A DNA stretch of 64,000 nt. Origin: Schmidtea polychroa (lineage: Eukaryota). Position numbers and translations under genes: made by a program. The notes beneath the pieces are model-generated. The model had not been told where the DNA came from. It ran no database searches and was given only the letters and a program-made list of their open reading frames with translations. The stretch is from assembly GCA_044892525.1 (NCBI GenBank), contig CM097886.1, positions 139,376,001 through 139,440,000 of the forward strand, written 5' to 3'. Below, piece by piece: positions 3,228 through 41,591 of the stretch (position 1 is the first letter of the stretch; every line of letters starts with the position of its first letter).

Positions 3228-4186
3228 TGTTGGATGATGAAGGTAGGCACATCACCATATTCAATCTCAACAAGTATTATAGGACTGGGCCCAAAAAATA
3301 TAGAGTCAATGTGTGCGCTGAAGAGCGTAGATAAATAAAACAGCTCAGCAGTCCAATTTCCCAACAATCCAATGCCTCAAACAATAGTAACAACCAACAA
3401 TTCAATTCCTCAAATGATAACAATAACTTTTGTGTGATAAATTATATCAAACTTTATTAACATTGATCTGTGTTTTAACTCTATTCATTTTTATTTGTGT
3501 ATAAATTTTTAGTGTATTTTACTTTATTGACATTATCAACACTCTATGTGCTTTTAACTTTATTTATTTTTATTCGATTGTAAATTTTATTGGTAAACAC
3601 AAAAAATAAATATATATATAAAGGGTAATTGATATTTATAAATAATAATAATAATAATAAAAATAATAATAATAATAGTAATAGTAATAATGGTAATAAT
3701 AATTTAAGAAAGTATTAATTAATTAATATAAGTGAATAAAAATATTTGAAATTTAATATCAGTCTGACGAGACTGAAAGCATCTAAAAATGAAATTTAAT
3801 TCAATATCAGTCTGACGAGACTGAAATAAATAACATATAAAATTTAAAATAATTAATTTATGCAAAAATTTTCTACTATATAAACGACTCACAAAGTCAG
3901 TGTAGTCGCCCAAAATTTTAGCGAAAAACTTTTATTCAAAGGTTAATCCTTAGAATAGTTTAATACCTGAATCAGAACAAAAACGATTCACATCTTGACT
4001 AAACCTACTAAGATACAGCACGTACTACACAACATATAACACTACATACATATTTGTACAGGTATTTCAGAAGAAGGATCAGAGGAATAATTGTAAAAGC
4101 ACTGCAAACTTTTTCTAGAATTGAACTTGCTTATATTTGGTAATTGTTAATTATAATAAATCTTTATACACATATTTGTTTTGTAT

Positions 4187-4267
<81 letters not shown>
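3228..4267 (+). repeat. LTR family A (copy 2), 5' part up to the internal (TA)n
   Basis: TGTTGGATGATGAAGGTAGGCACATCACC start is identical to 15874. Shares the CAAAA(T)TTAGCG...TTCAAAGG block and the TTGA(TA)n site with copies 3 and 5. Confidence 0.65.
4189..4267. repeat. (TA)n microsatellite
   Basis: Uninterrupted AT dinucleotide run. Confidence 0.98.
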
Positions 4268-4269
<2 letters not shown>

Positions 4270-5138
4270 AACCAGTAAGTTGAATGTTCCCGAATATCGA
4301 GACCTCAACAAAAGTAAATAAAAACATAATTTAATCATTGAAATATTTTTATATAAAACATAGTTAAATTTTAATAATGACACATGTTTAAAATAAATAA
4401 ATAAAATATACTAGCGCGAAGAGAAAATAATATAAATCCAAAATAAGTAGTGGTCGCCCAAAAATTTTACCATTCATACTGCAAACTAAGAAGTGAAGAT
4501 CCTTATTAGTTTTTAAATTCGAACAGTACAATTACAAAAACGTTCAAAACTGTCATACGAGAGTAAAGGATACATGGGACGACCTCACTTGGACCTGGGG
4601 GTATTTAAGACGACAGAGATTGGAAGAGAAAGATGTAAGTCGTGAGGAGTCATGAGTAGTAGTCCTAACACAGGGGCTCGCCTGCTCATGAATTCCAACC
4701 CATGAATAATAGTACTGAGACCAGTAACCATAAGGCCGAAAAAATTATCTACTTGTTTTTCAAAATTTCAATGAAAGTGAACTTCAAATCGAATTATTAA
4801 AATTAGTTAGTTTTAAAGGTAAAACATCCGAAATTATTTCAACTTTTTGTATCCATACATTAAAAAATCAGAAATTTTACTTTAAAATATGGAACATATT
4901 TTGTGTGGGCCATTGGCAGATCCAGGTCATCTAGTAAGGGGGACGATTATTTGGGTTTCAGTGCCAGCAACTAACAATCATAAAACCTGTTTAAATAATT
5001 TTGTTTTTTGAATATCAATCAATGTAACTAAGAAATGACGCCACGCATTGGTATTCCAATAATCATAATTTTAAATTTGGCTTTAGTTTTTTAAGATACC
5101 CAGGTACATACTAAGTACATACTAAGTACATACTAAGA

Positions 5139-7130
5139 TACCCAGACTTTAAAAGACAGTTTATTGTCATGACAGATGCCAGCGGGAAGGCCGTAGGGGC
5201 AGTCTTAGGACAATAAGAGGAAAAGGGTAAAGATTATGTAATAGCTTATGCAAGCAAAACATTAAAAGAAGCACAGATTAGGTACTCAACAATTGAGAAA
5301 GAATGTTATGCTATAGTTTTTGCATTAAAACAATTTAAACCATACATATATGGAACTGAAGTAGTAATTAGAACAGACCATAAGCCATTAGAAGGGTTAT
5401 TGAAACATAAAGATACATCCAGCAGACTGTTAAAATGGGCAATGAAAATACAAGACATGCACATAAAGATTGTATACAAACCAGGCAGAATAAACAGGAA
5501 TGCAGATGCATTATCACAAATTTCAGAATTAGGAGCACTAGAAGTTTTTGCATTAGTAACTGAAAAACCAATAGAAATATATGAGGAACAAATGAAAGGC
5601 ACAGAACTCTTCAAGATAAGAGAAGAAATAAAAAAGGGAACTAACCAAAAGTACAAAATCTGTAAGAAGTTAATTGTTATTGAAGATTTTAGCGGTAAAC
5701 AATAAATAGTAGTACCACAAAGATTAAGACAAATTCTTCTATTACAATATCACGATGGTGCTCTAGGAGGTCATTTATCAAGCAGGAAAACAGCAAGCAG
5801 ATTGATGCAAAAATATTTTTGGGACGAATTGAAAAAAGATGTTAAGAGATGGTGTAATGCATGCACAATATGCGCAACTAGTAAAAATACAGAAACAAAA
5901 GCTAAAGCACCTTTACACCCAATCCCAGCTACAACATCACCAATGGAACTGTGCGCAATGGATTTTTTGTGTAAACTACTCACAACAATTAATGGGAATA
6001 AGCACATACTAGTTTTTAGTGATTACTTTACCAAATGGGCAGAGGCATTTCCCACTAAAGATGAAACAGCAGAAACAGTAGCCAAATTACTTGTAGAAAA
6101 AATAATCTTTAAAATCGGTACACCGAGGAAACTATTAACGGATAAAGGAAAAAATTTCATGAGTGAAACTATAAAAAGAGTAGCTAATATATTTAACATG
6201 CATAAAATCAACACAACAGCATACCACCCTCAAACTGATGGGTTAGTAGAAAGATTCAATGGGACATTGCTAAGTAGATTAGCCGTGTTTGTGGGAAAAA
6301 ACCAAAATGATTGGGATGAATACGTCAATCAATGCACATATATTCATAACATCACACCCAATGAGACAACAGGATATTCACCATATTTTCTAATGTTCTT
6401 AAGAGAGCCTTCGACACCGATTGATACAATTTTTGAGCCTCGAGTATCACAATATTTAGATGCGCCAGATTATGTAACATTAATGCAAGAGAGATTACAA
6501 GAGGTATATAAAGTTGCAAATTTAAAAGTTAAATTTAGACAAGAACAGTACAAGGCAGATTACGATAAAAATAACAAACCTCATAATTTTAAAGTGGGAG
6601 ATAAGGTTAGAATTATGTCTCCACAAGTAGGTAAAGGCAAAACAACTAAATTAGCAAGACCATTTAAAGGACCATACGAGGTAGTAAAAGTAGTACATGA
6701 AAACCTGCATCTACAAAAACATAAAAATGAGGATATTATAATAGTACATGTTAATAGATGCAAATTAGCAGAAACAGAGTTAGTAGAAAAACCACCTCAC
6801 AAATATGGATTACGATCACAAAAAGCACTGATGATGGCAGCGATATTTCTAACAATTATAGGGTTGTGTAGATCAACAGAAATAGAAAATGAAAACATAC
6901 ACTCAGTAGAACAAATGGCTGAAAATATTTTAATCAACATTTCACCGTATAAGATTAAAGTATATAACCTAAATAAATCACCAATAAGAGACTTGTATCT
7001 GGAAACTAGGGACAATATACCCAAACTTATGAAAAAAATTGAGAATAGATCAACTAATGAATTTGAAAAAGGAGATAATGTTGAATTCATAAATTTACAA
7101 CCCAACATTAATTACACACTTTGTGCATAA
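5139..7130 (+). pseudogene. pol: Ty3/Gypsy pol, RNase H + integrase (5'-truncated, two in-frame stops)
   Basis: One frame reads YPDFKRQFIVMTDASGKAVGAVLGQ*...YSTIEKECYAIV...TDHKPL...NRNADALS (RNase H), then HDGALGGH...CNACTIC (Zn finger), CAMDF, LTDKGKNF, LVERFNGTL (DDE) and FKGPYEV. TAA stops at 5214 and 5703. Confidence 0.93.
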
Positions 7131-7666
7131 TGGAATACATTAGTTGACACATCACAGATAAGGTGCAAAAGAATAAAAACTACTACAATAAACAGACTTA
7201 GAGTAAAAAAACCAATAGGGAAAAAGATATCAACAACCAGCATAACAACAACTACTATAGATTCAATATCCACACATCCTATATCACAAACGATAACGAA
7301 TATATATATAGAAAAACGACATTTAAAGTTGTTAGACAAATATATAAAAAATTAATAATGAAAAATCCAAGACAGTCTGATAGGAAACTGATAAAATTGC
7401 CTACAGGAAAACCGATAATTATAAATAACTGGAATGAATTACAAGTCTTTCAAAAGAAAGCAAGTAAACCACAATGGCCTTTTTACGTAATAGCCAAAAA
7501 TATATTATCATTCGCGATTTTAGCAATTGTCACTAGTGTACACGTTTATAAAAATTACAAGTGGAAAAGGCAGCGGTATCGGCACCGACTGGTCAAAGAA
7601 GCACCAGGGCACTTTCACTTGGACAAATATATCCCTGGACAATATACTCTGTCCACACTTGTATAA
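6825..7666 (+). pseudogene. env-position type-I membrane protein fused in frame behind integrase (one stop, one frameshift)
   Basis: Hydrophobic ALMMAAIFLTIIGLC, FN3-like INLQPNINYTLC, Thr-rich STTSITTTTIDS, TM NILSFAILAIVTSVHVY and basic KNYKWKRQRYRHR. TAA at 7128; one extra A in the run at 7346-7351 would join ORF 7358-7666. Confidence 0.55.
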
Positions 7667-7836
7667 TAACTTAAAAAAATAAAAAAATTATGTAAATTGG
7701 TCAATGATATATAATAAAAGTATATATATTAGTATTTATATAACTGCGTATAAGGTTAAACCTCAAATGCGCAACAAGCATAAATATTTATTGTTTGTTT
7801 TTAGAATAATAATAAGAAGTCAAAGTCAAATCAGTC

Positions 7837-8536
7837 TGTGATGGAGGTTGTAGTTTTATCGTTATTATTGTTAATTATTGTTAATTTATGTTATTTTGGT
7901 GAAGATTTTGTAGAGCCCGAAAGAGTCACCGTTAAAACTTGTAGCGGGACAATCGGGGTGCGTGCTATGTTCAAAATATAATAATTACGAACAATATAAA
8001 GTTACGAATATAACGCAAAACAATAATAAAATGTTACAACTTTTAAACTTTATTATAACAAAGAAATAAAACCTCGTGTTTATCTTGGATTTTCGTAAAT
8101 TGTAGTTCCAAATATTTTCTTTGATTTTCTCTGCACTATAACCTATTTAGGAAATTTATATATCGAGAAATATGCTTCAAGTACAAATATAGTTCGATTA
8201 AAAACAACTGATTGATGAAACAGTATCTGCGTTTTCCGAAAACTTTTTTCTCCTTTCTTCACAATACTCACAATCTGTTTTGCAGTAAAATTCAAATAAG
8301 ATTTGTTAATTCTCAATATTTAATTTTCTATTTCCAACTCGACATTGATTTTTTATTTGATTTTTTTAATTTTTATTTTTGTAATTTACTATAGCGATAA
8401 TTTACTATAGTAAATTATCGCTATATAGTTTTTTATTAAAAATCTGGATTTCCCAGATGGTTGTATTTTATATTTTAGTATACACAATTCCTAATTGTGA
8501 ATACTAAAATATTAACAAAAATAACTGTACATTACA
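7837..8536 (-). repeat. 3' LTR of nested Gypsy element
   Basis: Matches 13267-13966; I found one difference (T8310 vs C13740). Confidence 0.97.
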
Positions 8537-8552
8537 TAACTTCCCCCTTTAA
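8537..8552 (-). promoter_or_regulatory. Polypurine tract
   Basis: Minus strand AAAGGGGGAAG-TTA immediately before the 3' LTR. Confidence 0.85.
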
Positions 8553-8711
8553 AACCGGAGGTTTACATGAATCAATAAAAAGTAACGTAAAAAAAATTAC
8601 ATTCAATAACCTTTTTTTTTTCGTATGTTTTATATGTTTTTGTGTATTTTGTTTCTGTTTCTTTGTATCTACAACTTCAATAAAATTAAAAATTTACATT
8701 TTGTTTTGTAT

Positions 8712-11700
8712 TTACAAGAAAAATAAAAACTGTACAATTAACGCTGTTTGTGCGTGTGTTTGTTTGTGTATGTTTGTGTTTTTATTTAAAGCATTCGCTG
8801 TAACGTTTTTTGTATGGTGGAGCCAGTATTGTGTCTTTGTCGAATATTTTGATTGAATTTTTGTGGTTGAATGTGATGTTTTTGTGAATTGGTTGTTTTT
8901 TGTTTGTGTTTGGGTTTGTGTTTTGTCTTGCGGTGAGTTGTTTTGTGGGTTTTTGTTTTGGTGATAGGGTTTTATTCGTCTTATGTTTATTTTCATTTTG
9001 TTGTTGTTTTTGATTATTGTGGCGACGTTTTTGTTAATTTCTAGGAGTTTGAATGGACCCTCGTATTTGGATTCGAATCCTTTTGTGAATGGTTTTTTTA
9101 TTAGGATGAACTCTGTTGTTAATACTATTTTTCCGTCTAATTCGGAGTCCGGTCTTCTTTTTAAAATTCCTTTTGGTTTCTGTTCGGTGGTTTCGCTATT
9201 TTTGTTTGTTATTTGTTTGCTGTTTTCCGTGTTTTTGTTTGTATCTGATTTAAGTGATGGCAAGTTTGTTGCTTTTCCGAAAATTTTGTATGCTGGACTT
9301 TCATTATCTGTTGAATTTGGGCTATTTCTTAGTCTGATTAATATTGTTGGAAGTTGGTTTAACCAGTTTTGGTCATTGGCTTTTATCCTGATGCTTTCTT
9401 TTAATGTTCTGTGAAACCGTTCGATTTTCCCATTTGATTGTGGATTGTAAGCTGTTGTTCGATTTCTTTAGATATTGTATTTATTGCACAGTATTTTGAA
9501 CATTTCTGATTCGAATTGTCTGCCTTGATCAGTTATGATTGTTTTCGGTTGGCCGTAACGAGCTATCCAGTTTAGTTCGATCATTTCGCAGATATTTTTT
9601 GCTGTGATTTCTTTTATTGGGATCGCTTCGAACCAATTGGTTTTTCTGTCTATAATTGTTAGTAGATATTTGTAGTTGTCGTTTGGTGGTAGTGGTCCTA
9701 TTACGTCTGTGTGTATTGTTTCAAACGCTTCACTGCTTGGGAAGTTTACTTTTTGTGTTTTGGGTTTTTTTGTTGTTTTATTTAATTGGCAGCTGTGGCA
9801 ACTTTTGACGTAATTCTTGATGTCTTCCCGCATGTGAGGCCATACATATTTGTTATGTATTAACTCGAATGTTATTTTGTTTCCCGGATGATTGATAGTA
9901 TGTATCGTTTTAATGCAGTCTTGTCGGAGTTCTTCGGGTAGTAGGATTCGTTTGTTGCTTTCGTTGGAGACATCGTGCCATATTCCATCGAGTTCCTGTA
10001 GTTTCAGGCTGTGTTTAGTAGGCAGTTTGCTTAATGTATCGGTTTGTCTGGATTTGATTTGATCCAATTCAATTATTTCTCCGAATTCTAGGGCGTTTAT
10101 GTCACTTTCAATTCTGGATAGAGCATCTGCTGCTATGTTTGATTTTCCTGCTACGTAGTTTATTGTGCAGTTGAATTGTGAAATGAAATTGATTTGTCTG
10201 ATCTGCCTTGGTGAAGGGTTTTTCATTTCTATTGCGTTTGTTAGCGGTTTGTGGTCTGTGAATATTTTGAAGGTTCGTCCTTCGAGTAAATGTTGAAAGT
10301 GTTTGATTGCTTCGTGTATTGCTAGGAGTTCTCTGTCGAATGTTGAGTATCTTGTTTGATGTGATTTTAGTTTTTTCGAGAAAAATCCCAGTGGTTGTTT
10401 GCCGAATTTATTTTCCTGGAAAATCGTTGCGCCCATTGCAAAACCAGAACAGTCTGTAGTTAGTTGATACTCTAGTTCTGGATCTGGGTAACCGAGTAGA
10501 GTTGCCGTTGATAGGCTTTCTTTGGCTTTATTGAATGTGTCGGTTGTTTGTTGTGTCCAGTTTATTGTTACGTTTCGTTTGGTTTTGATAATGTCGTTTA
10601 GTGGTGCCAGTAGGTTGCTGCAATTTGGGATGTAAGAATGATAAAAGTTTACCATTCCTAGAAATCTCCTCAACTCTCTTGTGTTTGTCGGCAGTTTGTA
10701 GTTTTTTATATTGTTTATTTTGTTTTCTATTGGTTGTGTTCCTTTGTCGTTTAGCGTGTGACCAAGGAAATTTATTTCCGTTTTCATAAATTCGCACTTT
10801 TGAGTGTTTATTTTTAGTTTTGCATTGTCCAGCGTTTTGAACACTTTCCACGTCCTTTAGATGTGTTTCTTTGTTTGGGCTTGTTATTAGGATGTCGTCC
10901 AGATAAGCGATTGTGTTTTTGTTGTTTTTCATTGTTTGATCCATGAATCGTTGGAAAGTTGCTGCGGCGTTTCGTAGACCGAAAGGCATTCGGTTGTATT
11001 CGAACATGCCGATCGGTGTTGTTATTGCTGTCTTTTAATGTTCTCTTTTCTAATTGGGATCTGATGATATGCTTTTTGTAGGTCAATTTTTGAAAAATAT
11101 TTTGCGCCTTTTAGTCGATTTATTATGTCTTTTATTATCGGTAATGGATAGCTGTCGGGCTCTGTTATTTTGTTCAGGAGTCTGTAATCGCCACAAGCTC
11201 TCCATTCCCCGTTAGCTTTTTGTTTTAGCATCAGTGCTGAAGACCATTCTGAGTTTGAATGTTTTACTATATTATTTTCCAACAGTTCGTTAAATATATT
11301 TTTTGTGATTTCTATTTTTTTTGGATCCAGTGGTCTTACTTTTCAGTGGACTGGGTTTCCGTTTGTCAGTATTGCGTGTTCAGTAGTGTGGTTTGAATTT
11401 CCATCGAAAGTTACTGGTTCGCAGAGTTTATTGTATTTTGCCAGTAGTGTGACTATTTCTGGTACGTGTTCAATAGTTTTAATTGTTTTGATAGTTGGTG
11501 TACTTGTTTGAATCACGCCGATGTCTACTTTCGAAAAGTTTGAAGTTGTGTTCCTGGCTGTTTCTTTGTCTGTTTTGTTGTTTTCGACTATTTTCTTGTT
11601 TCGACAGTCCACTATTAGGTTGTAATTTGCTAAGAAATCGGCCCCGATTATTGACTGTTGTACTTCTGCGATTGTGAATGGCCAACTGTATTTTTTTGAA

Positions 11701-11891
11701 TTTATTGTGAGTGTTATTGTATATTGGCCAAATGTTTTAATTTTGGAGCCATTGGCAGCGGTTAGTGACTTTTCTGTAGTTTTTGCATTTGTGTATAAGT
11801 AGTGTGGTAATAGGGAGATCTGTATTGTTTGAATGCACCGTGAAAGTATTATTATTGTCACCAAATGTGGGTGCTATCAATGGTGACATTT
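8712..11891 (-). pseudogene. pol: pol (PR-RT-RNase H-IN) of nested element with five lesions
   Basis: Motifs: LTAANG...IIGADFL (PR); WRACGDYRLLN, RMPFGLRNA, YLDD (RT); TTDCSG, TDHKPL (RH); HPG...CHSC, HTDVIGP, TDQGRQF, IERFHR, EGPF (IN). Lesions: frame break at the PR active site, TGA at 11343, frameshifts near 11030 and 10845, TAA at 9468. Confidence 0.93.
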
Positions 11892-13067
11892 TTAGTTTTC
11901 CTGCTCTGTTTTGTGGAATTCGCAGGGTTTTATGCATTTATATGCTTTGTCGCCGAATTTGTTATGAAAGTAGCAGTGGTTTTTGTTTAGGAAATCTTTT
12001 CTTGAATTCCTTTCTGGGCTGCTATTTCGGTAATTGTTGTATCGATTTGGTGAGTTTGACCGGTTTCTGTAGTGACCGTTTGGGGATTGTCTGTGGCTGT
12101 AGTTCTGTCTATTGTTTTCGTTGGGTGGTCGGTCGTAGTTTTGTCTGTTATGATTGTATGATAGTTGGTCTGTGTTGAAATTGTTTCTGTTGAATAGGTC
12201 TCTGTTTTCGTTTGGATTGCAATTTTGCCTGTTGTATTTCTCTTTTATTTCGGCTAGTTCCGCTTTTATTTGTCTGTTTTCGACAATTATTTCGTCGAAT
12301 TTGCTGATCAAAGTGTTTATTAATCGGTTTGTTGTTTCATTTGGTTCTGTGTTTTTGTTGGTTGGTTGGGTGTTGTGATTAGTTTTATTTCTGTTGTAGT
12401 TTTGTGCGCTGCATATAGTAGGATAAATTTCTTCATTGATTTTATCTGCTATGTCTGCTAGCGTTTCTACGTCCGAATTGCTACTGGCTGCGAGGATACG
12501 TCTTATTTCGGGCGGCATTGCTCGCATGAAAAATTCTTTTACTAATTCGTTTGATCCCGAATTAGTGATGTTTGGTTGGAGGTACTTCAATTTTTGTTTT
12601 AGTTGGCGAAGGAAATCTGTTGGTTTATTGTCGCCAAGTTGTGTGTTGTTGAGACATGATTCCAGCATTTGCCTCCTGTTGATTTTGTTTTTGTTTGTTA
12701 GGACGTTGCAAAGCTTGTTGAACGGGTCTTCGCTCTTTGAAATTTCCTCAATTTGGTCAGCTATTTCGTTCAATTTGCTACTTGGGAGTGCAGCGATAAT
12801 GTTTGAACATAGCGTTTTCGTTGACTTTATTCCCGATAGGGTTAGGGTTAATTTAGCAAATTCAAGCCATTTTTGGGGTGTCCCATTTTCGTCACTAAAG
12901 TAGTTTGGGATGTTTGTTCTTGGGTTAATTACTGAGTTTATGGTGTGTGTATTATCTGTGCTAGTGTTTGGGTTATAGTAGTAATTCGTATTTTCCATCA
13001 TGTGTGTGTTTTCAGTATTATTGGGGGGTTGTGAAATGTTTGTTGGATTTGTTTGGTCTGATGCCAT
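11892..13067 (-). CDS. gag: Gag, 391 aa
   Basis: LGDNKPTDFLRQL, ELVKEFFMRAMPPEIRRIL, LADIADKI and C-terminal CYFHNKFGDKAYKCIKPC knuckle typical of CsRn1-type Gypsy Gag. Overlaps the pol frame at GAAAACTAA. Confidence 0.9.
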   Translation of the reverse strand: MASDQTNPTNISQPPNNTENTHMMENTNYYYNPNTSTDNTHTINSVINPRTNIPNYFSDENGTPQKWLEFAKLTLTLSGIKSTKTLCSNIIAALPSSKLNEIADQIEEISKSEDPFNKLCNVLTNKNKINRRQMLESCLNNTQLGDNKPTDFLRQLKQKLKYLQPNITNSGSNELVKEFFMRAMPPEIRRILAASSNSDVETLADIADKINEEIYPTICSAQNYNRNKTNHNTQPTNKNTEPNETTNRLINTLISKFDEIIVENRQIKAELAEIKEKYNRQNCNPNENRDLFNRNNFNTDQLSYNHNRQNYDRPPNENNRQNYSHRQSPNGHYRNRSNSPNRYNNYRNSSPERNSRKDFLNKNHCYFHNKFGDKAYKCIKPCEFHKTEQEN

Positions 13068-13250
13068 TAATTGGTTTGTTGATGTTTTTTTTTATTGCTT
13101 GTTGTGTTACAAAAAATGAGATTGTTCAAGGATATGGCTTACTGTGTTCAGCCAAGAGTCACTATCCTTTATACTTCAATAATAAGTATGCTGAAAGGCG
13201 TAGTGATTGAAAAAAATCGTCGAATGCGAGTGTCGTGTTGTGTATATTTT

Positions 13251-13264
13251 TTCTTCTTACACCA
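13251..13264 (-). promoter_or_regulatory. Primer-binding site
   Basis: TGGTGTAAGAAG 2 nt after the 5' LTR, complementary to a tRNA 3' end ...CUUCUUACACCA. tRNA-Leu-like by inference. Confidence 0.75.
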
Positions 13265-13266
13265 GT

Positions 13267-13966
13267 TGTGATGGAGGTTGTAGTTTTATCGTTATTATTG
13301 TTAATTATTGTTAATTTATGTTATTTTGGTGAAGATTTTGTAGAGCCCGAAAGAGTCACCGTTAAAACTTGTAGCGGGACAATCGGGGTGCGTGCTATGT
13401 TCAAAATATAATAATTACGAACAATATAAAGTTACGAATATAACGCAAAACAATAATAAAATGTTACAACTTTTAAACTTTATTATAACAAAGAAATAAA
13501 ACCTCGTGTTTATCTTGGATTTTCGTAAATTGTAGTTCCAAATATTTTCTTTGATTTTCTCTGCACTATAACCTATTTAGGAAATTTATATATCGAGAAA
13601 TATGCTTCAAGTACAAATATAGTTCGATTAAAAACAACTGATTGATGAAACAGTATCTGCGTTTTCCGAAAACTTTTTTCTCCTTTCTTCACAATACTCA
13701 CAATCTGTTTTGCAGTAAAATTCAAATAAGATTTGTTAACTCTCAATATTTAATTTTCTATTTCCAACTCGACATTGATTTTTTATTTGATTTTTTTAAT
13801 TTTTATTTTTGTAATTTACTATAGCGATAATTTACTATAGTAAATTATCGCTATATAGTTTTTTATTAAAAATCTGGATTTCCCAGATGGTTGTATTTTA
13901 TATTTTAGTATACACAATTCCTAATTGTGAATACTAAAATATTAACAAAAATAACTGTACATTACA
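13267..13966 (-). repeat. 5' LTR of nested Gypsy element
   Basis: Direct repeat of 7837-8536, followed by TSD CAGTC. Confidence 0.97.
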
Positions 13967-14054
13967 CAGTCAATCAAATCAACCCAATCAAAACAATCTG
14001 CAGAAAAATCAAAGTAATCATTCCTACCAAATCGATCTTCAAATAACCAAACCA

Positions 14055-15983
14055 ATGCACCCACACACGTCAGTTCATATGTATTCGCAAAGAACCAAAG
14101 CCCAGCGCAATCTTGAAACTCACAAAATAAAGAAATACGTGCCGATGATCCATAAACACTACAATAGTTTTTATAAAAATTTACAAAACAAAATCAGCAC
14201 AGACAGCACTCCCATTACTATCAGAAGCTTCCCCAGCCAAGTCTGCATTCCAAATGACATGAAAATTGAAATCGAAGATAGGGAACTTCACCTTATCAAA
14301 TTTAATGAAGCCCGAAGAGTAAAACTCAAAGACCTCATTGGAGCATTCGATCAGTTCCCAAATGCAGAAGAAGCAGTAATAGAAGGGAAGAAAGTACCTC
14401 ACAGAATATTATTTCACATTACGAAGACAGAAATATCAATCTGTCAAGACAGAACACCTTTGATTACCACAAGCAATTGTACAATAATGTTCAGGACAAT
14501 TAAAAACGATCCAAGTGTGCCGAATGAATATAATCAACTAATAGTGCAAATGAACAACCTACCATGCGTAATCGGAATCGAAATACTGTACATACCTACC
14601 ATCCCGAACCCTTTCAGAGAATTAGAAATCGTCAAATCTACAACTCAAATTCCAAGAGATGCGATTAAGAGAAGAATATCATTTACCCACCAAGACCTAT
14701 CAACAACAGAAAGACATCAGCGTCTCATGTTCGTGGAGGCAAGGCTGATAATGGATATCAACAATAATCTAAGACCCGTAATAATATGTATAAGAAATTC
14801 AAAGGGCTCCGTAGTATACGACAAGAAAATCACACCTCGGACAAAAGTATTGCACTATTACCCTGAAAAAACAGAATCTAATAAAGAAAACATCATTGGT
14901 AATGAGGATGAATATCAAGCACTCATCGAGATTCAAAAATTATTAGTAGGATATGAAATCATAGATAAATTAAAAGCCCTAACCTTGGATCTGGACAATG
15001 TGATGGGGGTAAGAGAAATGGCAAATCATGCATTCTTGACATCATTTGTAAAGAACGTAGCTCCCCACAAAATCAAGCTGTCAAATCTGGCCTACCAGGT
15101 TATCAAACACCACAAAAGGTGGTACAAAGACAAGGCAATAAACGAAATATTGAAAAGACCTGAACCCTTCTCGGCAAGACACACAACAGCGATTCTGAAA
15201 GTCATCTATGACATAGTCGAAACACAGTGGGAAGAAGTAGTAAAATGGAATGTAGCATCAGAATATCCACTGTCAGGGAATACAGCAGCAGAAAATCCAC
15301 AATCAACAGAGACAAGAGAAGATGATCTGTTTATGGAAGAGGAGGACATGTATATCGAACCCTCACAATTTGAACTAAAATGTCGCAGAGATGGAACTCG
15401 AAGAACTTTCGAAAACGAGTTAGAAGATAGCGACGGTGACCTAATATTCATCTCAGAAGAAAGAAGACAGGAACCTGTGCAAACAGTTAAACTCGAACCA
15501 CGGGAACCACAAAGTCAATCAATGATAACAGAATGCGATTTAGATTCAGACGAGGAGTACTTCTCACTAGAAGAACAAAACAGTGAAGAAAAAGAAGATA
15601 CAATGAGTGTCGATGAATCAAAAGAAGAACTGGGGCCTGAACAAGATATAAACATAGAAGAGCCTCATTTTATAATAGAAAAAGAAAAGCAACAGATCAC
15701 AGAAAAGGAATTGACTCGTCATTTCGGGAGACAAATAAACGAGGGCGATATCCTAAATATAGCATTGGGCAAAGGATTCAATCGAACAAAAATGCTCATT
15801 CAGGATTGCGAGATAGAAATAGTAAAAAGTATTAGAGATAATGTGGACATTATCTTAACGGTCCAGGGAGGAATGTTGGATGATGAAGGTAGGCACATCA
15901 CCACATTTAACCTCACAGGTATCATAGGACAGGGCCCAAGAGATACAGAATCAATGTGTACGCTGAAGAGCGTAGATAGATAA
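14055..15983 (+). CDS. 642-aa accessory ORF of the large Gypsy element, with a degenerate REX4/ISG20-like DEDDh exonuclease domain
   Basis: 14718-15233 reads IICIRNSKGSVVYDKKITPRTKVLHY...LVGYEIIDKLKALTLD...LSNLAYQVI...IYDIVETQWE, paralleling REX4 VSIVN..G..VYDKYVKP..V.DY / LVGH...NDLKVL.LD / LY..V..EWE. An acidic region follows, and the end runs into the LTR. Confidence 0.7.
   Translation: MHPHTSVHMYSQRTKAQRNLETHKIKKYVPMIHKHYNSFYKNLQNKISTDSTPITIRSFPSQVCIPNDMKIEIEDRELHLIKFNEARRVKLKDLIGAFDQFPNAEEAVIEGKKVPHRILFHITKTEISICQDRTPLITTSNCTIMFRTIKNDPSVPNEYNQLIVQMNNLPCVIGIEILYIPTIPNPFRELEIVKSTTQIPRDAIKRRISFTHQDLSTTERHQRLMFVEARLIMDINNNLRPVIICIRNSKGSVVYDKKITPRTKVLHYYPEKTESNKENIIGNEDEYQALIEIQKLLVGYEIIDKLKALTLDLDNVMGVREMANHAFLTSFVKNVAPHKIKLSNLAYQVIKHHKRWYKDKAINEILKRPEPFSARHTTAILKVIYDIVETQWEEVVKWNVASEYPLSGNTAAENPQSTETREDDLFMEEEDMYIEPSQFELKCRRDGTRRTFENELEDSDGDLIFISEERRQEPVQTVKLEPREPQSQSMITECDLDSDEEYFSLEEQNSEEKEDTMSVDESKEELGPEQDINIEEPHFIIEKEKQQITEKELTRHFGRQINEGDILNIALGKGFNRTKMLIQDCEIEIVKSIRDNVDIILTVQGGMLDDEGRHITTFNLTGIIGQGPRDTESMCTLKSVDR
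15865..15873 (+). promoter_or_regulatory. Putative PPT of the large element
   Basis: AGGGAGGAA directly before TGTTGG at 15874, the point where all five family-A copies start to match. Confidence 0.65.
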
Positions 15984-17034
15984 GAAAATAGACAGTCTAA
16001 TTTCCCAACAATCAACCCAATTCTATGCAACCCAATTCAATCCAAAAACAATCCAGAAAAATCTTTCAAAGCAATCCGAAAATTGACTATCTAATTGACA
16101 ATTTGTGTAAATATTATTGATTAAACATTATCCTCGAACTAGCTAACAGTCTGTGCATATTTTATCCTTTATTCTGATTAATTTCTGTCTGAATATTTAT
16201 GTATAATACTGTATGATTAATGATGTATATTTTATCGGGTGTATATATTTAATAGACTGAATATTTTATTTCTAGTTAATCTTTTAGATAAATGATTACA
16301 ATAGAATTTTACACAAGGGAAAATATTCTAAATGAATTAATTAATTTTTTCAGTTAAAGACAAAAATTAAACAATTTTCTTGAAATCATATAAAATAAAT
16401 TTAAGTGCTTATTTCTTGAAAAATAAACAACCGATATTTTTAAGTGCTTTTAAAATAAATACGATTATTCCTTGAAATTATATAAAATAAATAATTGATA
16501 AGTGCTTATTTCTTGAAACTTATATAGAATATATAATTGATATTTTTAAGTGCTTTTAAAATGAATATGATTTATTTAACCAATTATTTTTTGAACTTAT
16601 ATAAAATAAATAATTGATATTTTTAAGTGCTTTTTAAATAAACATGATTTATTTTTTAACCAATTAAAATGAATATAATTTATTTTGTAGTATTAAATAC
16701 TTCAAAAATTTAATATAAATACCCTAATTATTTTCAGTGTAATACGACCAAAAATTAGCGCTTTAGTAATTTCAAAGGTAAATCCCGCGAAATATTCAAT
16801 ACCCGAGACAGAACAGAAAAGTCTCACAAATTTTTAAATAAACTACAGTAAAATCTACATACGCACGCACGATATAACATATAACGAAAACACATATTGC
16901 AAGCATTTCAGAAGATTCGAAGCTATTCAATAAAAGTATAATTCCGATATTTTGCACGAAATTGATAGTGTTATTACGATTGTTTAATTTGGGTCATTTT
17001 TAGTTTCAATAAATATTTATCTATCGACTTATTT

Positions 17035-17097
<63 letters not shown>
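15874..17097 (+). repeat. 3' LTR (family A, copy 3), interrupted at its (TA)n
   Basis: PPT then TGTTGGATGA; homologous to 3228- and 43829-; ends in (TA)n 17037-17097, into which another LTR inserted. Confidence 0.7.
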
Positions 17098-17101
<4 letters not shown>

Positions 17102-18151
17102 AGGTTCGATGGGTATGTCTTCGAACTAACACAAAAACGTTCTATCTGACTCCAAGTAAATAATTTATGCGTGTAGGTAAATAAATAAATAAGATATTAT
17201 GTTTTAAATCTTTATTTAACAATAAAAAGTTAATTACACGTTCGTTTATATATATCTAGCAAGCTGCTTTCTATAAGTACAGAAAACGGTTTTACAAACC
17301 GCCCTAAAGAGTATTACTAAGGATCAAGGCTGGCCCTAAATGCGCCAACAGCCCGATATAGGTGAAAAGGAAAAGAGATAGGGAAGATCACCAAATTTTA
17401 CGCGATAGAGTCAACCCAGAAATTGGTTAACTCTTTTTCAAATAAATATTCAACAACGATACAACACAAAATACGTGCTGACGTTATGGTATCCCTTTAA
17501 TGTTAAAGTAATTAAATTAGATAAAATATGTATATAATATATTTCAAAAAAAACAATAACAATACTAACTATATAATATTCCCAAGCAAAATAAACCACA
17601 GATGGGTTGTTGAGCTTGCTAAAAATCTATCCTTCTTTTTTCTTTAATTAATACTCCAATAGATATTGGAGATAAGTGATTGTATAAATGATACGAAAAT
17701 TCCAAAATATTTGTTAATATATTCCAATCGATAATTGTCTATCAAATAAGGCTTGCAGTTATTAGTTAGAAATAAATTCCAATGTAAATTCTCTACCGCT
17801 TAATGCGAGAAAATCTGTATCTATTTATAACAATTTCTTTCAATTAATTCTCAATCTTTTCTGTCGCGTCCGATTTTTCCGTCCCGTAATCTAATTTTTA
17901 TCTACTATTTATATGAATTTTATTTATCCTAATTCTATTAATAGTAATTGTTTAATTACTATTTTTATTATATATTTTTAAATAATTTCTACAATTCTAT
18001 TTTTAGTAATTATTTATTACTAATTATATTTTAGTTTTAATTTTAGTGTTTAATTTCTATTTTAGGTAATTTTTAAATACTATTTCTATTATACTTCTAA
18101 TTAATTATTATTTAATTTCGAACCTTCAATTCCGGGTCCTACTGAACCCCA

Positions 18152-26574: not shown

Positions 26575-26611
26575 TCAGCTGTACATTTTAGACGGTTCTG
26601 ATACCGTTGTC

Positions 26612-27755
26612 AGTAGTAGGATGTGAGCTCCCCAGACCATGTCCCCTCCAGATCACATATACCCCCTCCCCCCCCCCCCGGGAAAAAATTTTATTTTTTT
26701 TTTAGAACGATGCCTAATATTTTTAGAACTATTACGTAATCAATGCCTAATATTTTTAGAACGATGCCTAATATTTTTAGAACTATTACGTAATTTTTTT
26801 TAAATTAAGTGATCCAGCGGGGACCTACTTTTTTTCTTCCCAAAAGTAATGTTCCCGCCAACAAATTTTATTAACCGATACCTCATCTTCAAGCTCAGTC
26901 CAAGACCTTTCGAATGAGCTATAGGTATCTTATATATCTTTAATAGTTTTAATGTTATTAACAATTGATGACCACCATCTTTTCAACGTTAAATTATTAT
27001 TATTTTTCAAAATATTATTAAGTGATCCAGCGGGGACCTACTTTTTTTCATCCCAAAAATTATTGTTCCCGCCAACATATTATATTGATCGATAGCTTAT
27101 TTTAAAGCTCTGTGCAAGAACTTTCTAATGAGATATAGATTTTTTATCATACGATGACTCATCACATTTTTAGAACAAAGACAATGACTCATCACATTTT
27201 TAGAATGATGTCTAATATTTTAGAATGATGCCAAATATTTTTAGAACGATGTCTATTATTTTTAGAATGATGTCTAATATTTTAGAATGATGCCTAATAT
27301 TTTTAGAACGATTACGTCATACTTTTAGAACGATGCCTAATATTTTTAGAACGATGCCTAATATTTTTAGAACTATTACGTAATCGATGTCTAATATTTT
27401 TAGAACGATGCCAAATATTTTTAGAACGATGCCAAATATTTTTAGAACGATGCCAAATATTTTTAGAGCGATTACGTAATACTTTTAGAACGATGCCTAA
27501 TATTTTTAGAACGATGCCTAATATTTTTAGAACGATGCCTAATATTTTTAGAACGATGCCAATTATTTTTAGAATGATTACATCATACTTTTAGAACGAT
27601 GTCTAATATTTTTAGAATTAATAATTTTGTTTTAATTATCGATGATTATATAATTTGTTTAAATCATTGATTATATAATTCTTTTGTTTTAATTATAGAA
27701 TACGTAATAATATAATTTTGTTTAAATCGTTGATTACATATTATTATTTTCTAAG

Positions 27756-27803
<48 letters not shown>

Positions 27804-27966
27804 CATATATATACAGAGTCTATCCGACAAAATATTCTGTCCCCCTAAGGGTACTGCACACAAATGTACTACTCACACTCAACAAGTCACAAGGGTACTG
27901 TTCACAAAATTACTTGTAAAAATATTCAAGACAAAACTTTCTAAATTCTAAATATTATTCTTTAAA
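26612..27966 (+). repeat. Maverick left TIR (~1355 bp)
   Basis: Reverse complement of 41381-42623. Contains a C-run, a ~210-bp internal duplication, ~21-bp TTTTAGAACGATGCCTAATAT tandem units and (ATT)n. Confidence 0.95.
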
Positions 27967-27972
27967 TATTCA

Positions 27973-28331
27973 CTAAAATTTATTAACACATTCACATTCA
28001 TCATCTCCACAGTTCATAACATTTTCAACAACATGATCTATACAATCCCTATATACACACGGTTCAGTATCCGTAAATTCCTCCATAGGTTCATCAATTT
28101 CTTGAATGCTTTCCTCATCATCTTGAGTGTTTTCTTCATCTGTTTCATCAAATTCCGAATCTTCACTCTCTGCTACCCAGCCGATATTTAATGCGTTTGT
28201 AACAGATAATATGTCCTCAATTTTCACACCAGATATTTCTGCTAACTTTTCCAATAAAAAGTTTATTATAAATTCTAAATATTAAATAATTCGATAATTA
28301 ACTAATCATATTAACCTTTTTCTGTAGTCAT
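27973..28331 (-). CDS. Small acidic Maverick protein, two exons (28331-28316, 28274-27973)
   Basis: ATGACTACAGAAAAAG|gt..41 bp..ag|AATTT gives MTTEKEFIINFLLEKLAEISG..., supplying an ATG that the ORF otherwise lacks. C-terminal DCIDH...CGDDECEC. Confidence 0.65.
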
Positions 28332-28427
28332 TATTAGTATTTTAAAACTATAGTATATATTTGTTTATAGAAAATATAGAATATAAGCGAAAACAAATAA
28401 GACTAAATACATTTATTAAATACAACA

Positions 28428-28847
28428 TTAAAATAACTGTGAAAGTCTAGCAGACATAATTTTCCAAATTGGAGAATACACATCATTATTATCAACTTTA
28501 TATCCTTGGATTGTAATTGTTATATACCAATTTTCGTTTTCTTTGAAACTGATTTCATCAAAGGAATCATAAAATTTTGCATATCGGTTGTTGAAAAATG
28601 CATTTTGATTGCATGATAGATTCGTATTCAACCTTTTGAAAACATCATCTATGGTTTTAATATCTAACATTGAAAGCGTGCCGGTTAAGAATTGAAATTG
28701 GGTAGGAATTAGCTTGATCGGTGACACCAATTTCATATTGATTTCTTCTTTTAAAAAATACATTTTGTAGTTGTGGAACATTTGAACAGGTTGTACAAGT
28801 TCTGGAACTACTTTTGGTTTTTCAGTGCTTGAAATTTTCTTGGTCAT
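28428..28847 (-). CDS. 139-aa Maverick accessory protein of unknown function
   Basis: Clean ATG-TAA ORF between two co-oriented genes. Confidence 0.7.
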   Translation of the reverse strand: MTKKISSTEKPKVVPELVQPVQMFHNYKMYFLKEEINMKLVSPIKLIPTQFQFLTGTLSMLDIKTIDDVFKRLNTNLSCNQNAFFNNRYAKFYDSFDEISFKENENWYITITIQGYKVDNNDVYSPIWKIMSARLSQLF

Positions 28848-28955
28848 TGTGAATTATGATTAAAATGAAATGGTACAGGGTTTTTATACCTATGACTATT
28901 GTTTATCATCCAATCAGATTGCAGTATGTTTTTGTTTTAATTGAATGATAAATAA

Positions 28956-29420
28956 TTAATTAAGTGATAATAAAAAATCTAAAAATTCTTTTCCTTCAAT
29001 TATTGATTTAATTTCAGATATGATATTATCAACTATACATTTGTAATCAATATTTTTTATTCCAAGAATTACTATCTTACCACTAGCGAATATATTTACA
29101 CACATAGGGTTATATTTTATATATCTCAAAGCTGGAAATAATTCTGGTTCATAAAAGCATGGTATTAATTTAGCTAATTTATTTAAATTACAAGAAAAAC
29201 CTATATCGGAAGTTACGGTTATCGATTGTATTTCTAAATCATAAACATTATATTCACTAGCTTTGATTATTTCCTTACACCCCATAATTCTACATTTACC
29301 AGTTTTGAAATATATTATTGGATATTTATTACTTCTATTGATAAGTTGTTGTGGTTTCCCTATTGGAAATACCATTTTTGATACATCAGTTTTTGCCCTG
29401 TAATTTATATTTGAAAGCAT
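28956..29420 (-). CDS. TATA-binding-protein-like protein, 154 aa
   Basis: IQSITVTSDIGFSCNLNKL...YEPELFPAL...NIFASGKIVILGIK matches TBP repeat 2 (IQN....DV.FPIRLE.L...YEPELFPGL...LIFVSGKVVLTGAK). IIYFKTGKCRIMGCK matches the end of repeat 1. Confidence 0.85.
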   Translation of the reverse strand: MLSNINYRAKTDVSKMVFPIGKPQQLINRSNKYPIIYFKTGKCRIMGCKEIIKASEYNVYDLEIQSITVTSDIGFSCNLNKLAKLIPCFYEPELFPALRYIKYNPMCVNIFASGKIVILGIKNIDYKCIVDNIISEIKSIIEGKEFLDFLLSLN

Positions 29421-29524
29421 TTTAATGAAATAATTTTAAAAACTTTGATATATATAGGTATTTAAAAACAGAGTTCATTTAAATTATCAATATAAACAAT
29501 AATTATATAGTTTAAATTTAAAAA

Positions 29525-30163
29525 ATGGAATTACGAAATGATGCAGTATACCAAATCGTTGGTCCAAGTGGTAGCGGGAAAACTTTATTTGTTTGTAAAT
29601 TACTAAAATCAAATTTGTTTAAAACAAAATTCAACAATATTTATTGGCATAGGGGCGCCGACGAAGAACACGGATTGACGCAATCAAGTTTCTGTCAGTT
29701 GAAAAACATGAAAATAGTAAAGGGCTTTGATAAAAACTGGTCAAGTCGTTTGAAGAAAGATGATGTCATCATTATCGATGATTTGTATCAAGAAGCCAAT
29801 AAAGAAAAGGACTTTAATAATTTATTCACAAAAATCAGCAGACATGTTGGTGTAACAGTTATTTTCATAACACAAAATCTATTTCATCAAGGTGGTGCAC
29901 ATCGAACACGTAATTTAAATGTACAATATTTAGTTATTTTCAAGAATCCTAGAGATGCAACTGTCATTGATTTTCTTGGACGACAAGCATACCCTAATAA
30001 CCGTAATTTTCTTATCAATGCATTTCAAGATGCTACGAAAATACCGCATGGGTATATATTTCTCGATTTCACACAACAATGCCCTGATGATATACGGGTA
30101 AAAACAGATATTTTCAACCCAAAAGGTGCCATGGTATATAAACAAAGTTCAAAACAAAGTTGA
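29525..30163 (+). CDS. Genome-packaging ATPase (A32/FtsK-like)
   Basis: Walker A GPSGSGKT, Walker B VIIIDD, FTKISRH, ITQNLF, RTRNLN, PHGYIFLD. Confidence 0.93.
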   Translation: MELRNDAVYQIVGPSGSGKTLFVCKLLKSNLFKTKFNNIYWHRGADEEHGLTQSSFCQLKNMKIVKGFDKNWSSRLKKDDVIIIDDLYQEANKEKDFNNLFTKISRHVGVTVIFITQNLFHQGGAHRTRNLNVQYLVIFKNPRDATVIDFLGRQAYPNNRNFLINAFQDATKIPHGYIFLDFTQQCPDDIRVKTDIFNPKGAMVYKQSSKQS

Positions 30164-30176
30164 AAACATATAAATC

Positions 30177-30671
30177 ATGTTTTCAAAAACAAGGATATCG
30201 GGTAAAAAACAACCAAAAGTTCCACCAACAACTAGTTATACTCCATCTAAAGAACTTATTACAGAAAATTTTCCTGCAATGAATCTTATTTCGAAAAATC
30301 CTAAACCTAAACCAAAAAGTAAAACCACTAAGAAAGTAAAAGTTGTTAAAAATCATCGGAGTTTCCCGTTTTTCAATACATTGTTAAAGGCACCAAGTAT
30401 GAAAAGAAACAGTATTTTGCAATCTTTTCCAAATTATGTTGTCGATGATTTACTCGATATTATACTTAAAGTAGTCAAAGGCAAGATTAAAATCAGTAAA
30501 TCTAAAAAGCAATTATTGAGTAAACATAGGAAACCTTTGCTATCATTAGTAAATAATAAAAATCGTCAACAAATGAGAAAAATTATATATAAACAACAAG
30601 GGGGATTTATCGGTGCATTGATACCTTTAGCAATATCATTATTAGGTGGAATAATAGGAAGTCGATCATAA
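30177..30671 (+). CDS. Basic virion/core protein with C-terminal QQGG-FIGALIP amphipathic tail
   Basis: Lys-rich; ends KQQGGFIGALIPLAISLLGGIIG, resembling the adenovirus pX GG-hydrophobic tail seen in Polinton accessory structural ORFs. Confidence 0.7.
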   Translation: MFSKTRISGKKQPKVPPTTSYTPSKELITENFPAMNLISKNPKPKPKSKTTKKVKVVKNHRSFPFFNTLLKAPSMKRNSILQSFPNYVVDDLLDIILKVVKGKIKISKSKKQLLSKHRKPLLSLVNNKNRQQMRKIIYKQQGGFIGALIPLAISLLGGIIGSRS

Positions 30672-30732
30672 ACAATGGGTGCTAATCCTTCATTACCAGA
30701 CATTAAATTTAATATTAAATCTTCTTGTTGTA

Positions 30733-31788
30733 ATGGAGAAGATTTGGACGAACCCAGAAGACGAAGCCGGTTTCGGTGGAGTGGCAAAATTAAGGAAAAG
30801 AGTTCCGAATTCGAAAAAGGAAACTCAGAAGTGGTTATCAGACCAGCTTGCGTACAGTTTGAACAAACCAATGCAGAAACGATTCCCAACAAGAGCATAT
30901 AAAACATATGGAATAAATGATTTATGGCAAATGGATTTGATGGAGATGATACCCTATTCTAAAATTAACAATGGGTATAAATATATTTTAACCTGTATTG
31001 ATGTATTCAGTCGGTTTGCCCGAGCAATACCCGTCAATGCAAAATCTGCAGATGAAATGTCCAAAGCTGTTAATCATTTATTTAAAGATGGACATCCTAA
31101 AAACTTGCAAACTGATTTAGGTATTAATATTATTATTTTTATTATTATTATTATTATTTTAGGTAAAGAATTCTACAACAGTAAAGTCAAGCAAATCCTC
31201 AATAAATTGAAAATAAACCATTACTCAGTACATTCTCAATACAAAGCTGCTCATGTTGAAAGATTTAACCGAACTTTGAGAGATAGATTAAAGAAATTAT
31301 TCGTGCATCAAGGTAATAAAAAATGGGTATTGGTTTTACCAAAAATAATAACCAGTTATAATCACTCATCACATCAAGGACTGAATGGATTAAGGCCGAT
31401 TGATATCACGTCAAAAACAATCTATTCTAAAAAACCTGAAAAAATTACAAAACTGAAATATAAAGTAGGTGACCATGTTAGAATTAGTAAAATTAGTGCA
31501 TCACCATTTATTAAAAATTTCGATACAAATTGGAGTGATGAAGTCTTTGTAATTTCAAAAATAAATACTAAACAGAATCCTGTAATGTATGTCATCAAAG
31601 ATAATGATAACAATATTGTACAAGGAAAATTTTATGAGCAGGAATTACAAGTTATTCCTCCCCCAAAAGTATTTAGAATTCAGAAGATTTTGAAAACTAA
31701 AAATAAAGGCAAGGATAAACAATACTATGTCAAATGGCATGGTTATCAAAACCCATCATGGATATCAGAAAAGGATCTAGTAAAGTGA
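30733..31788 (+). CDS. Retroviral-like integrase with C-terminal chromodomain and a predicted 42-bp intron (31121-31162)
   Basis: GFGGVAKL, WQMDL, LTCIDVFSR, LQTDLG|KEF, VERFNRTL, YYVKWHGY...SWI. Likely start is ATG 30733. Confidence 0.95.
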   Translation: MEKIWTNPEDEAGFGGVAKLRKRVPNSKKETQKWLSDQLAYSLNKPMQKRFPTRAYKTYGINDLWQMDLMEMIPYSKINNGYKYILTCIDVFSRFARAIPVNAKSADEMSKAVNHLFKDGHPKNLQTDLGINIIIFIIIIIILGKEFYNSKVKQILNKLKINHYSVHSQYKAAHVERFNRTLRDRLKKLFVHQGNKKWVLVLPKIITSYNHSSHQGLNGLRPIDITSKTIYSKKPEKITKLKYKVGDHVRISKISASPFIKNFDTNWSDEVFVISKINTKQNPVMYVIKDNDNNIVQGKFYEQELQVIPPPKVFRIQKILKTKNKGKDKQYYVKWHGYQNPSWISEKDLVK

Positions 31789-32801
31789 ATTTTTATACTA
31801 TTTTACCAAGCAATAGTTGCCCGCTTATTCATCCAGATAATCAAGCCAGTAAATTCATGGTCAATCTCCAGAATCCGATTTCTTTAAATGGTGACTGGGA
31901 AGTTGCACTGCAAGATTTTACATTCGTGTACAATACATTCCCATTTTATAGTCAATGTAAGATTGATTTCAAAAGGAATGCTATGAAAACATGTAGTGGT
32001 ATCTTTATTATCAGTAATTATGATAAAACATATCATATTCCGAATCAAATATTAGATCAGCATTGCACTATGTTTTACAAGGATGGATTAAATATCAGTT
32101 GTGATTTTAAACCATTTACAATAACATTCGAATATATTGAAGATGCCAGACGAATGGGTTGCAATAAGTTGAAAAATGAAGTTATGGAAACAGAATATTT
32201 ATTACGCTTTGATCTATTTGAAGCAAACAGTGTAATGAGAGAAGAAATCAAAATTTCAGTGTCGTATAATAATGAAGTTGAAGAATCATTCACCTTCGCT
32301 GACGAATTATATATTGATAAACTTGATGTGTTACTTAAATATTTAAAGTATAATTGTTCACACATATTTAAAAGTTTGGATATTGTGAAAGATTTGTTAT
32401 TTACCTTCAGTTTGAATGATGACATTTGCGAAGTTACATTTGATAAAAATTTGACAAATACACTTGGATTAGAGAAGCAGCAATATCGGGAAAAATCGGC
32501 TGGTATACGTAAACCAAGAATACTTGAACATCATCAACAAATGTTCATATATACTAATATTATTGAGCCTATAATAGTTGGTGATTCCAGTGTTCCTCTA
32601 TTGAAATCGGTGTGGATTGGAAAATATGAACATGATGAAGTTGTCAATATAAATATAGATAATCCCATGTATTTACCAATTTCAAGCTCATGTATAAACA
32701 ATATAGAAATAAATATTCGTGACGATAGTGGAAAACTTATAAACTTCCCAAAAGACTCAAAAACTCATTTGACACTACATTTTCGTAAAGTAGATGGCTA
32801 A
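31734..32801 (+). CDS. Minor capsid protein (penton)
   Basis: FYTILPSNS...FMVNLQNPISLNGDWEVAL and FIYTNIIEP.IVGD..VPLL...YLPI...IEINIRDDSGK...LTLHFRK. Exact start uncertain. Confidence 0.88.
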   Translation: MAWLSKPIMDIRKGSSKVNFYTILPSNSCPLIHPDNQASKFMVNLQNPISLNGDWEVALQDFTFVYNTFPFYSQCKIDFKRNAMKTCSGIFIISNYDKTYHIPNQILDQHCTMFYKDGLNISCDFKPFTITFEYIEDARRMGCNKLKNEVMETEYLLRFDLFEANSVMREEIKISVSYNNEVEESFTFADELYIDKLDVLLKYLKYNCSHIFKSLDIVKDLLFTFSLNDDICEVTFDKNLTNTLGLEKQQYREKSAGIRKPRILEHHQQMFIYTNIIEPIIVGDSSVPLLKSVWIGKYEHDEVVNINIDNPMYLPISSSCINNIEINIRDDSGKLINFPKDSKTHLTLHFRKVDG

Positions 32802-35970: not shown

Positions 35971-36333
35971 TATTTATTTATTTTTATATATTTATTTTTT
36001 TTTTTTTTAAAAACCTTGTAAATTTCTTAAATACTTTTTAAACATTTTCTTTAAAAACTTATTTATAAAAACTTATTATGAAAATGAAGAAAATATTATG
36101 ATGAAATTGAAAATGTTATGTTGACTAAATGATGAAAATATTATGATGAAGAAAATGATGAAAATATTATGATGAAGAAAATGATGAAAATATTATGATG
36201 AAGAAAATGTTTAAAAAGTATTTAAGAAACAATAGTTTTAAAATATTCCTTGTAGTTTGCAATGAGCAACTACATTAGTTAAAATAATAATAATAATAAT
36301 AATAATATTAAAAATAGTAATAAAAATATATCT

Positions 36334-41528: not shown

Positions 41529-41591
<63 letters not shown>

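Follow-up and report, generated by a model that had tools for sequence, protein, structure and literature searches.

In the present study, we analyzed a 64,000-nucleotide stretch of the Schmidtea polychroa genome (the window; GCA_044892525.1, contig CM097886.1, positions 139,376,001 to 139,440,000; about 70% A+T), in which a forward-strand open reading frame (ORF) at 14055-15983 codes for 642 amino acids (aa), as a previous sequence-only reading had stated. This frame, designated ORF2, is an accessory gene of a Ty3/Gypsy retrotransposon (the outer element), into which a second, unrelated Gypsy element is nested. The relevant features, including long terminal repeats (LTRs), are as follows.

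14055-15983, plus strand: ORF2, accessory gene, 642 aa (open reading frame; copies elsewhere in the genome)
14139-14600, plus: modeled jelly roll (double-stranded beta-helix), aa ~29-182, resembling 2-oxoglutarate (2OG)-Fe(II) dioxygenases, HxD..H..R ligands not evident
14679-15251, plus: ISG20/REX4-type DEDDh exonuclease fold, aa ~209-399, degenerate site with E, R, K, F and T at the five positions (profile, model)
15252-15674, plus: acidic linker, aa 400-540, D+E = 44/141
15675-15983, plus: C-terminal region, aa 541-642, conserved in the family, without a Pfam match
15864-15873, plus: polypurine tract (PPT), coding in frame for Q604-G605-G606 of ORF2 (abuts the LTR start in the window, L032 and L044)
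15874-17097, plus: 3' LTR, 5' end inside ORF2, truncated at a (TA)n run (boundary taken from the LTR pairs of L031/L032 and L043/L044)
5130-7127, plus: pol remnant of the outer element, RNase H (RH) and integrase (IN), stop at 5703-5705 (Pfam rve/Integrase_H2C2)
7202-7666, plus: hydrophobic C-terminal polyprotein tail (in frame with IN in L032 and L056)
7790-7804, plus: T-rich tract ending in AG, candidate splice acceptor for an ORF2 mRNA (same motif in L032, L038, L041 and other families)
7837-13966, minus: nested unrelated Gypsy element, LTRs at 7837-8536 and 13267-13966 (LTR pair, target-site duplication, Pfam)

At this locus the outer element is a relic, and its ORF2 has been separated from the likely splice acceptor. 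Its stretch 5130-7836 shares 94% identity with the uninterrupted copy L032, everything 5' of RH (gag to reverse transcriptase, RT) is absent, and stops occur at the RH/IN border and after IN. The hydrophobic tail, previously taken for a separate membrane ORF, does belong to the element, but is the C-terminus of a single polyprotein in uninterrupted copies; a stop and frameshifts separate it from IN in the window. ORF2 is five codons shorter than its siblings due to a loss in the ExoII strand near 14940, and a frameshift near 15915 puts its last ~16 residues out of frame relative to them. The nested element, the two 700-bp LTRs of which are 99.7% alike, is bounded at both ends by the anticipated target-site duplication (TSD) CAGTC (7832-7836 and 13967-13971), and was inserted between the candidate acceptor, ending at 7804, and the ORF2 start codon. 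The window copy is unlikely to function. The contiguity expected after removal of the nested element was found in L062 and L044, in which its flanks map side by side inside a tandem-repeat stretch, but only the left flank was matched in L032, a more distant copy. The PPT and LTR are both present, but not downstream of the ORF: the PPT (15864-15873) falls within it, and so does the LTR start at 15874. Loose contig ends also accumulate at 15874, and homology to sibling LTRs extends to ~17045, before the break at the (TA)n run near 17098. A repeat that starts at this run (17098-17373) has an inverted copy at 48424-48775. The LTR at 3228-4310 was rejected as the 5' LTR of the element because it has its own 4-bp TSD, lacks a primer-binding site (PBS) and is 85% alike over 142 nt only; it is a solo LTR of a related element of the same family (family A). 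Remnants of further LTRs lie near 43182 and 43829, with a more distant remnant near 1951.

The intact architecture is provided by the uninterrupted copy L031-L033, which is 13.6 kb long and shows the hallmarks of Ty3/Gypsy elements: 1.1-kb LTRs of the TG..CA type, a PBS-like TGG stretch, a PPT, a 4-bp TSD and the order protease (PR)-RT-RH-IN. What appears to be one ORF of ~3050 codons, covered in two stretches, precedes ORF2 and encodes gag(CCHC)-Bcl-2-like-glycoprotein-PR-RT-RH-IN-hydrophobic tail, with the envelope (env) glycoprotein in frame between gag-BCL2 and PR (Pfam Monjiviricetes_fusion, E 1.2e-87); the match of the Bcl-2 domain (E 9.6e-5) falls short of the Pfam cut-off. The proposed linkage of ORF2 to this pol was supported at 13 family loci with inspected surroundings: IN was located upstream in the same orientation at nine, and 12 showed some portion of the element, the four loci without IN being two internally deleted copies (gag-BCL2-tail-ORF2), one with the tail only and one (a 54% copy) with no element part. 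The LTR pairs of the family are 98-100% alike, so the family has been active recently. ORF2 of family A extends ~35 codons into the 3' LTR, with the PPT being read as Q-G-G, an overlap that resembles HIV nef. Since the polyprotein up to IN is 97-100% shared between the subfamilies of L032 and L056, while their ORF2 proteins are only 53-70% alike, the subfamilies seem to have swapped their ORF2-LTR modules. ORF2 is fused in frame to pol in L047:1-5388 (minus strand; 1876-codon open frame), and to gag-BCL2-tail in the internally deleted L041:4799-9817 (plus strand; 1673 codons), either of which may be a chance frameshift.

Regarding the exonuclease domain, the sequence-only reading had recognized REX4-like motifs in order and substituted catalytic positions, and both observations were confirmed. 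A DnaQ-like DEDDh fold was recovered by profile and by structural model, with ExoI-III in order, and none of the five catalytic residues (D, E, D, H, D) is present in the window copy, in which ExoI D-x-E is E-A-R (aa 228-230), the ExoII Asp is Lys, the His is F and the last Asp is T. The site is degenerate at all 30 family loci compared, which keep at most one of the five residues (five loci lack the first two positions), and the ExoII Lys and the last Thr occur in 30/30. An alternative register yields a second Asp in the subfamilies of L038 and L041, with the Glu, ExoII Asp and His still being absent. Among 1019 candidates from a genome search with the exonuclease region, 150 were scored and all matched it, with identities of 54-100%; many of them lie in open frames 722-794 codons long. 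Pairwise dN/dS for the domain, suggested earlier as a check, was 0.04-0.08 in the three of 15 pairs with measurable dS, and synonymous sites were saturated in the other 12, in which protein identity was still 65-78%; pol and env controls gave 0.025-0.105. The fold is retained under strong purifying selection although the catalytic residues have been lost. Pfam RNase_T was matched by 39 of 78 relatives at E<=0.01, the window protein (P0001) not being among them; P0001 alone gave nothing significant against Pfam and PDB, and eight domain copies scanned one by one gave no RNase_T match. The first model, built from eight close copies, was poor (pLDDT 52), with ISG20L2 as the top Foldseek match (E 4.2e-4).

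The remainder of ORF2 had been described as acidic and novel domains. The C-terminal region has no Pfam match; the N-terminal domain, however, has in its model a double-stranded beta-helix core like that of 2OG-Fe(II) dioxygenases. As read from secondary structure, the HxD/E...H metal triad and 2OG-binding Arg are missing, with one conserved His (H93) and no HxD in 53 rows, and the domain may be any cupin-type jelly roll. AlkB ancestry found no support by sequence, with no similarity to host ALKBH3/8-like proteins. The top score in the Atlas search was only 0.82, closterovirus replicases were among the BFVD matches, and a profile search returned nine proteins, apparently all of the ORF2 family. 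SUMO-interaction motifs in the acidic tails were considered and rejected: they occurred in 11 of 35 tails against 8.4 expected, with 189 of 1000 shuffles being as high (seven of 42 proteins had no usable tail).

ORF2 starts 146-561 nt past the polyprotein stop in eight copies. At 11 of 17 loci, the ORF2 ATG has a T-rich YAG no more than 10 nt away, versus 80 of 2668 other ATGs; for a distance of 35 nt, the figures are 12 of 17 versus 248 of 2668. Because of this acceptor motif, a spliced subgenomic mRNA is the probable template for ORF2 translation, with GT(A/G)AG motifs in U5 or the PBS as candidate donors. Contigs from four sequencing runs, none of them recorded as RNA, contained no joint at the candidate acceptor.

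The sequence-only reading of a degenerate nuclease site holds for the window family, but missed that the gene is clade-wide and that its relatives are mostly catalytically intact. The same two-domain ORF stands behind pol in four other families of this genome, which were found through the ORF itself, such that its presence in every such element is not implied. All five catalytic residues are present in families B (L080, L120) and C (L073, L116, L118, L153), and absent in D (L139, L143) and E (L145). The host's own REX4-like gene (L148) is intron-split with intact motifs. In a metagenome scan, 17 of 279 candidate stretches were confirmed, most of them short; among these, only L105 has env-PR-RT-RH-IN upstream, and its ORF2 is intact. 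The 51 pattern matches in an IMG/VR scan yielded no confirmed case. Among the 80 domains of sufficient length for tree building, eight were host REX4-like, and the other 72 comprised 42 intact, 28 degenerate and two truncated domains, with genomic context seen for a minority of the proteins. Since the two-domain tree (35 rows) needs five changes (3-5 in bootstraps, at least two forced by strong branches), repeated catalytic loss is the more likely history, although not settled. A single origin of the dead state, weakly indicated by the exonuclease-only tree, appeared in 0% of 200 two-domain bootstrap trees (with a long-branch warning for P0025/P0069). The RT tree does not order families A, B+C, D+E and L105.

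Several relatives showed additional features. In the metagenomic L105:1-9657, the region from env to RT holds three aspartyl protease domains in tandem. L101:2779-3999 and L103:640-1845, directly upstream of ORF2, hold an ORF that we take by eye to be TRAF-like (RING, zinc fingers, MATH), recalling the MATH_TRAF cargo of Burro. In L102, gag comes after ORF2, and a ubiquitin-like domain lies between gag and BCL2 in L081:6988-9795 and L119:6065-10000 (families B and C). P0012, P0073, P0061 and P0080 contain two to four tandem REX4-like domains, intact and degenerate mixed, and in P0037 a degenerate domain is combined with a RING at the C-terminus. P0063 and the clusters of P0006, P0047 and P0056 (one with 24 members) are intact relatives of ORF2 from contigs that reach 15-30 kb in length and may be complete elements or giant Burro-like ones.

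Among known systems, Burro/GYPSM1 (PMC6431247) and Smed errantiviruses 1-6 (PMC13524379) have the same one-polyprotein order gag-BCL2-env-PR-RT-RH-IN with accessory ORFs, and Burro and GAG-ENV-POL elements share with family A a mononegavirus/gB-type glycoprotein between gag and pol. Together with the A+T content, the shared order suggests a dugesiid planarian host. By description, not by sequence, Burro exceeds 30 kb versus 13.6 kb for family A, and its BIR, ankyrin, MATH and dUTPase cargo has no Pfam match in the family-A polyprotein. An exonuclease ORF is not mentioned in the main text and seven supplements of PMC13524379 or the Burro section of PMC6431247. A further parallel is ORF3 of the bdelloid rotifer Juno/Vesta LTR elements and Terminons (PMC5408684), likewise an additional ORF at the 3' end that encodes a captured exonuclease of the DnaQ family; ORF3 is RNase D-like DEDDy, has intact residues and replaces env, whereas ORF2 is of the DEDDh ISG20/REX4 type, has a jelly roll joined to it, occurs alongside env and, in many lineages, is dead. 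Relative to ISG20, ISG20L2, REX4 and SDN1, the window family has lost the catalytic residues and carries an additional N-terminal domain. The pseudonucleases Exuperantia, PML PXL, Maelstrom and EXD1 are host genes, and Exu and PXL carry a SAM-like domain absent from ORF2. AlkB domains of plant viruses and orchid Ty3/Gypsy elements (PMC9289625) also place a 2OG-dioxygenase-like fold on a mobile RNA element, but metal/2OG ligands are not evident in ORF2. The ORF2 gene, and for Gypsy elements the jelly roll-DEDDh architecture and the nef-like ORF/PPT/LTR overlap, were not described in the literature searched; Repbase, Grohme 2018, Lee 2026, figures and bioRxiv supplements were outside its scope and may annotate the ORF. 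ORF2 is a real, conserved accessory gene and a new form of the known capture of nucleases by retroelements.

As for its function, we tentatively favor, at somewhat less than even confidence, a retrovirus-style accessory gene of an env-bearing Gypsy clade that acts in counter-defense against host small-RNA/double-stranded RNA (dsRNA) pathways. By model and profile, the protein combines a ligand-less jelly roll with a 3'-5' exoribonuclease fold of the ISG20/REX4 type, followed by an acidic tail. Because intact relatives exist, the ancestral ORF2 was probably an active exonuclease; in the window family, as in several others, the catalytic residues have been lost and the fold kept, and since this fold remained under purifying selection, the dead form most likely still binds RNA 3' ends. 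ORF2 may degrade or sequester small RNAs or dsRNA by-products, or shield the element's own RNA; antagonism by destroying or holding RNA ends is favored because such a role tolerates both an active and a dead nuclease. Viral ExoN counter-defense (PMC7968707) and host pseudonucleases (PMC13659232) are precedents. The bolder version, in which the whole clade encodes a dedicated antagonist of animal small-RNA silencing, a jelly-roll and ISG20/SDN1-like protein that degrades the 3' ends of PIWI-interacting or small interfering RNAs and repeatedly turned into a catalytically dead sponge, is doubtful; if true, natural enzyme/pseudo-enzyme pairs would coexist in one genome.

Several points weigh against these interpretations. 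The support is all from sequence and model. The exonuclease-only tree unites all 28 degenerate rows (88/93, weak), contrary to repeated loss. The acceptor pattern was defined after sequence inspection, the 17 loci are related to each other, and five of them, including family-A L032 and both family-B copies, have no such motif within 35 nt (in L032, one occurs ~140 nt upstream, past a repeat stretch). The likeness to SDN1 indicates family membership only, with ISG20 and ISG20L2 scoring higher, and the jelly-roll call comes from one model of two domains, without sequence-level support.

A rather unlikely alternative is a Rev/Rex/Tas-like regulator, made from the spliced mRNA, which binds element RNA or the LTR and promotes the export, stability or transcription of the unspliced genome. 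The 3' position, candidate spliced mRNA and LTR overlap are similar to those of complex retrovirus regulators, and the acidic tail would also fit. The retention of ORF2 in internally deleted copies without env-pol (L041, L059, L078) and the variation of the ORF2-LTR module between subfamilies with 98-100% of pol in common, as if protein and LTR traveled jointly, point the same way, but are also expected from 3'-end proximity alone, and the complete nuclease site of most relatives is left unexplained.

Still less probable is a role in the replication cycle, such as trimming RNA or primer 3' ends or serving as a particle scaffold, with dead forms as scaffolds only. Such a role was proposed for the rotifer DEDDy ORF3s (PMC5408684). 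ORF2 was present in every GAG-ENV-POL family inspected, though these were found via the ORF. Most Gypsy elements replicate without such a gene, and repeated catalytic loss in families with LTR pairs 99.5-100% alike argues against an essential enzymatic step.

We consider it improbable that the "dead" domain is active via other residues or that the jelly roll has a new catalytic site (N39, K42, R48, H93, E148, model numbering). Several acidic residues are invariant in family A, and H93 and E148 occur in 44/51 and 42/53 rows of the wider family, respectively; however, substitutions differ between dead lineages (D-K-K-F-T, A-S-F-L-E, S-K-K-T-E and others), and the conserved jelly-roll positions, as read from secondary structure, mismatch the HxD..H..R pattern. 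That ORF2 is a decaying passenger, open only because the PPT and U3 lie in it, is hardly credible: the family-A PPT and LTR start fall within its last 40 codons and the window copy is broken, but this is largely refuted by the low dN/dS of the N-terminal and exonuclease domains, which lie far from the LTR, and the ORF of families B, D and E stops ~0.25-2.4 kb short of the LTR, with many copies keeping it open.

Elsewhere in the window, a Polinton/Maverick-like element occupies 26611-42624, with long inverted repeats at 26.6-27.9 kb and 41.4-42.6 kb. Its ORFs include an A32-like ATPase (29525-30163), a chromodomain integrase (30733-31788) and one of 1392 aa that contains a 21-nt tandem repeat and weakly matches Endonuclease_7.

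In animals, little is known of suppressors of small-RNA silencing that are encoded by transposons. Planarian stem cells rely on PIWI control of elements like the present ones (PMC8532177), and a Burro accessory domain was reported to affect regeneration in work cited in PMC13465017. ORF2 is a concrete candidate silencing suppressor that is open to assay and knock-down, and the presence of intact and dead versions in one genome makes the switch from enzyme to pseudo-enzyme directly comparable.
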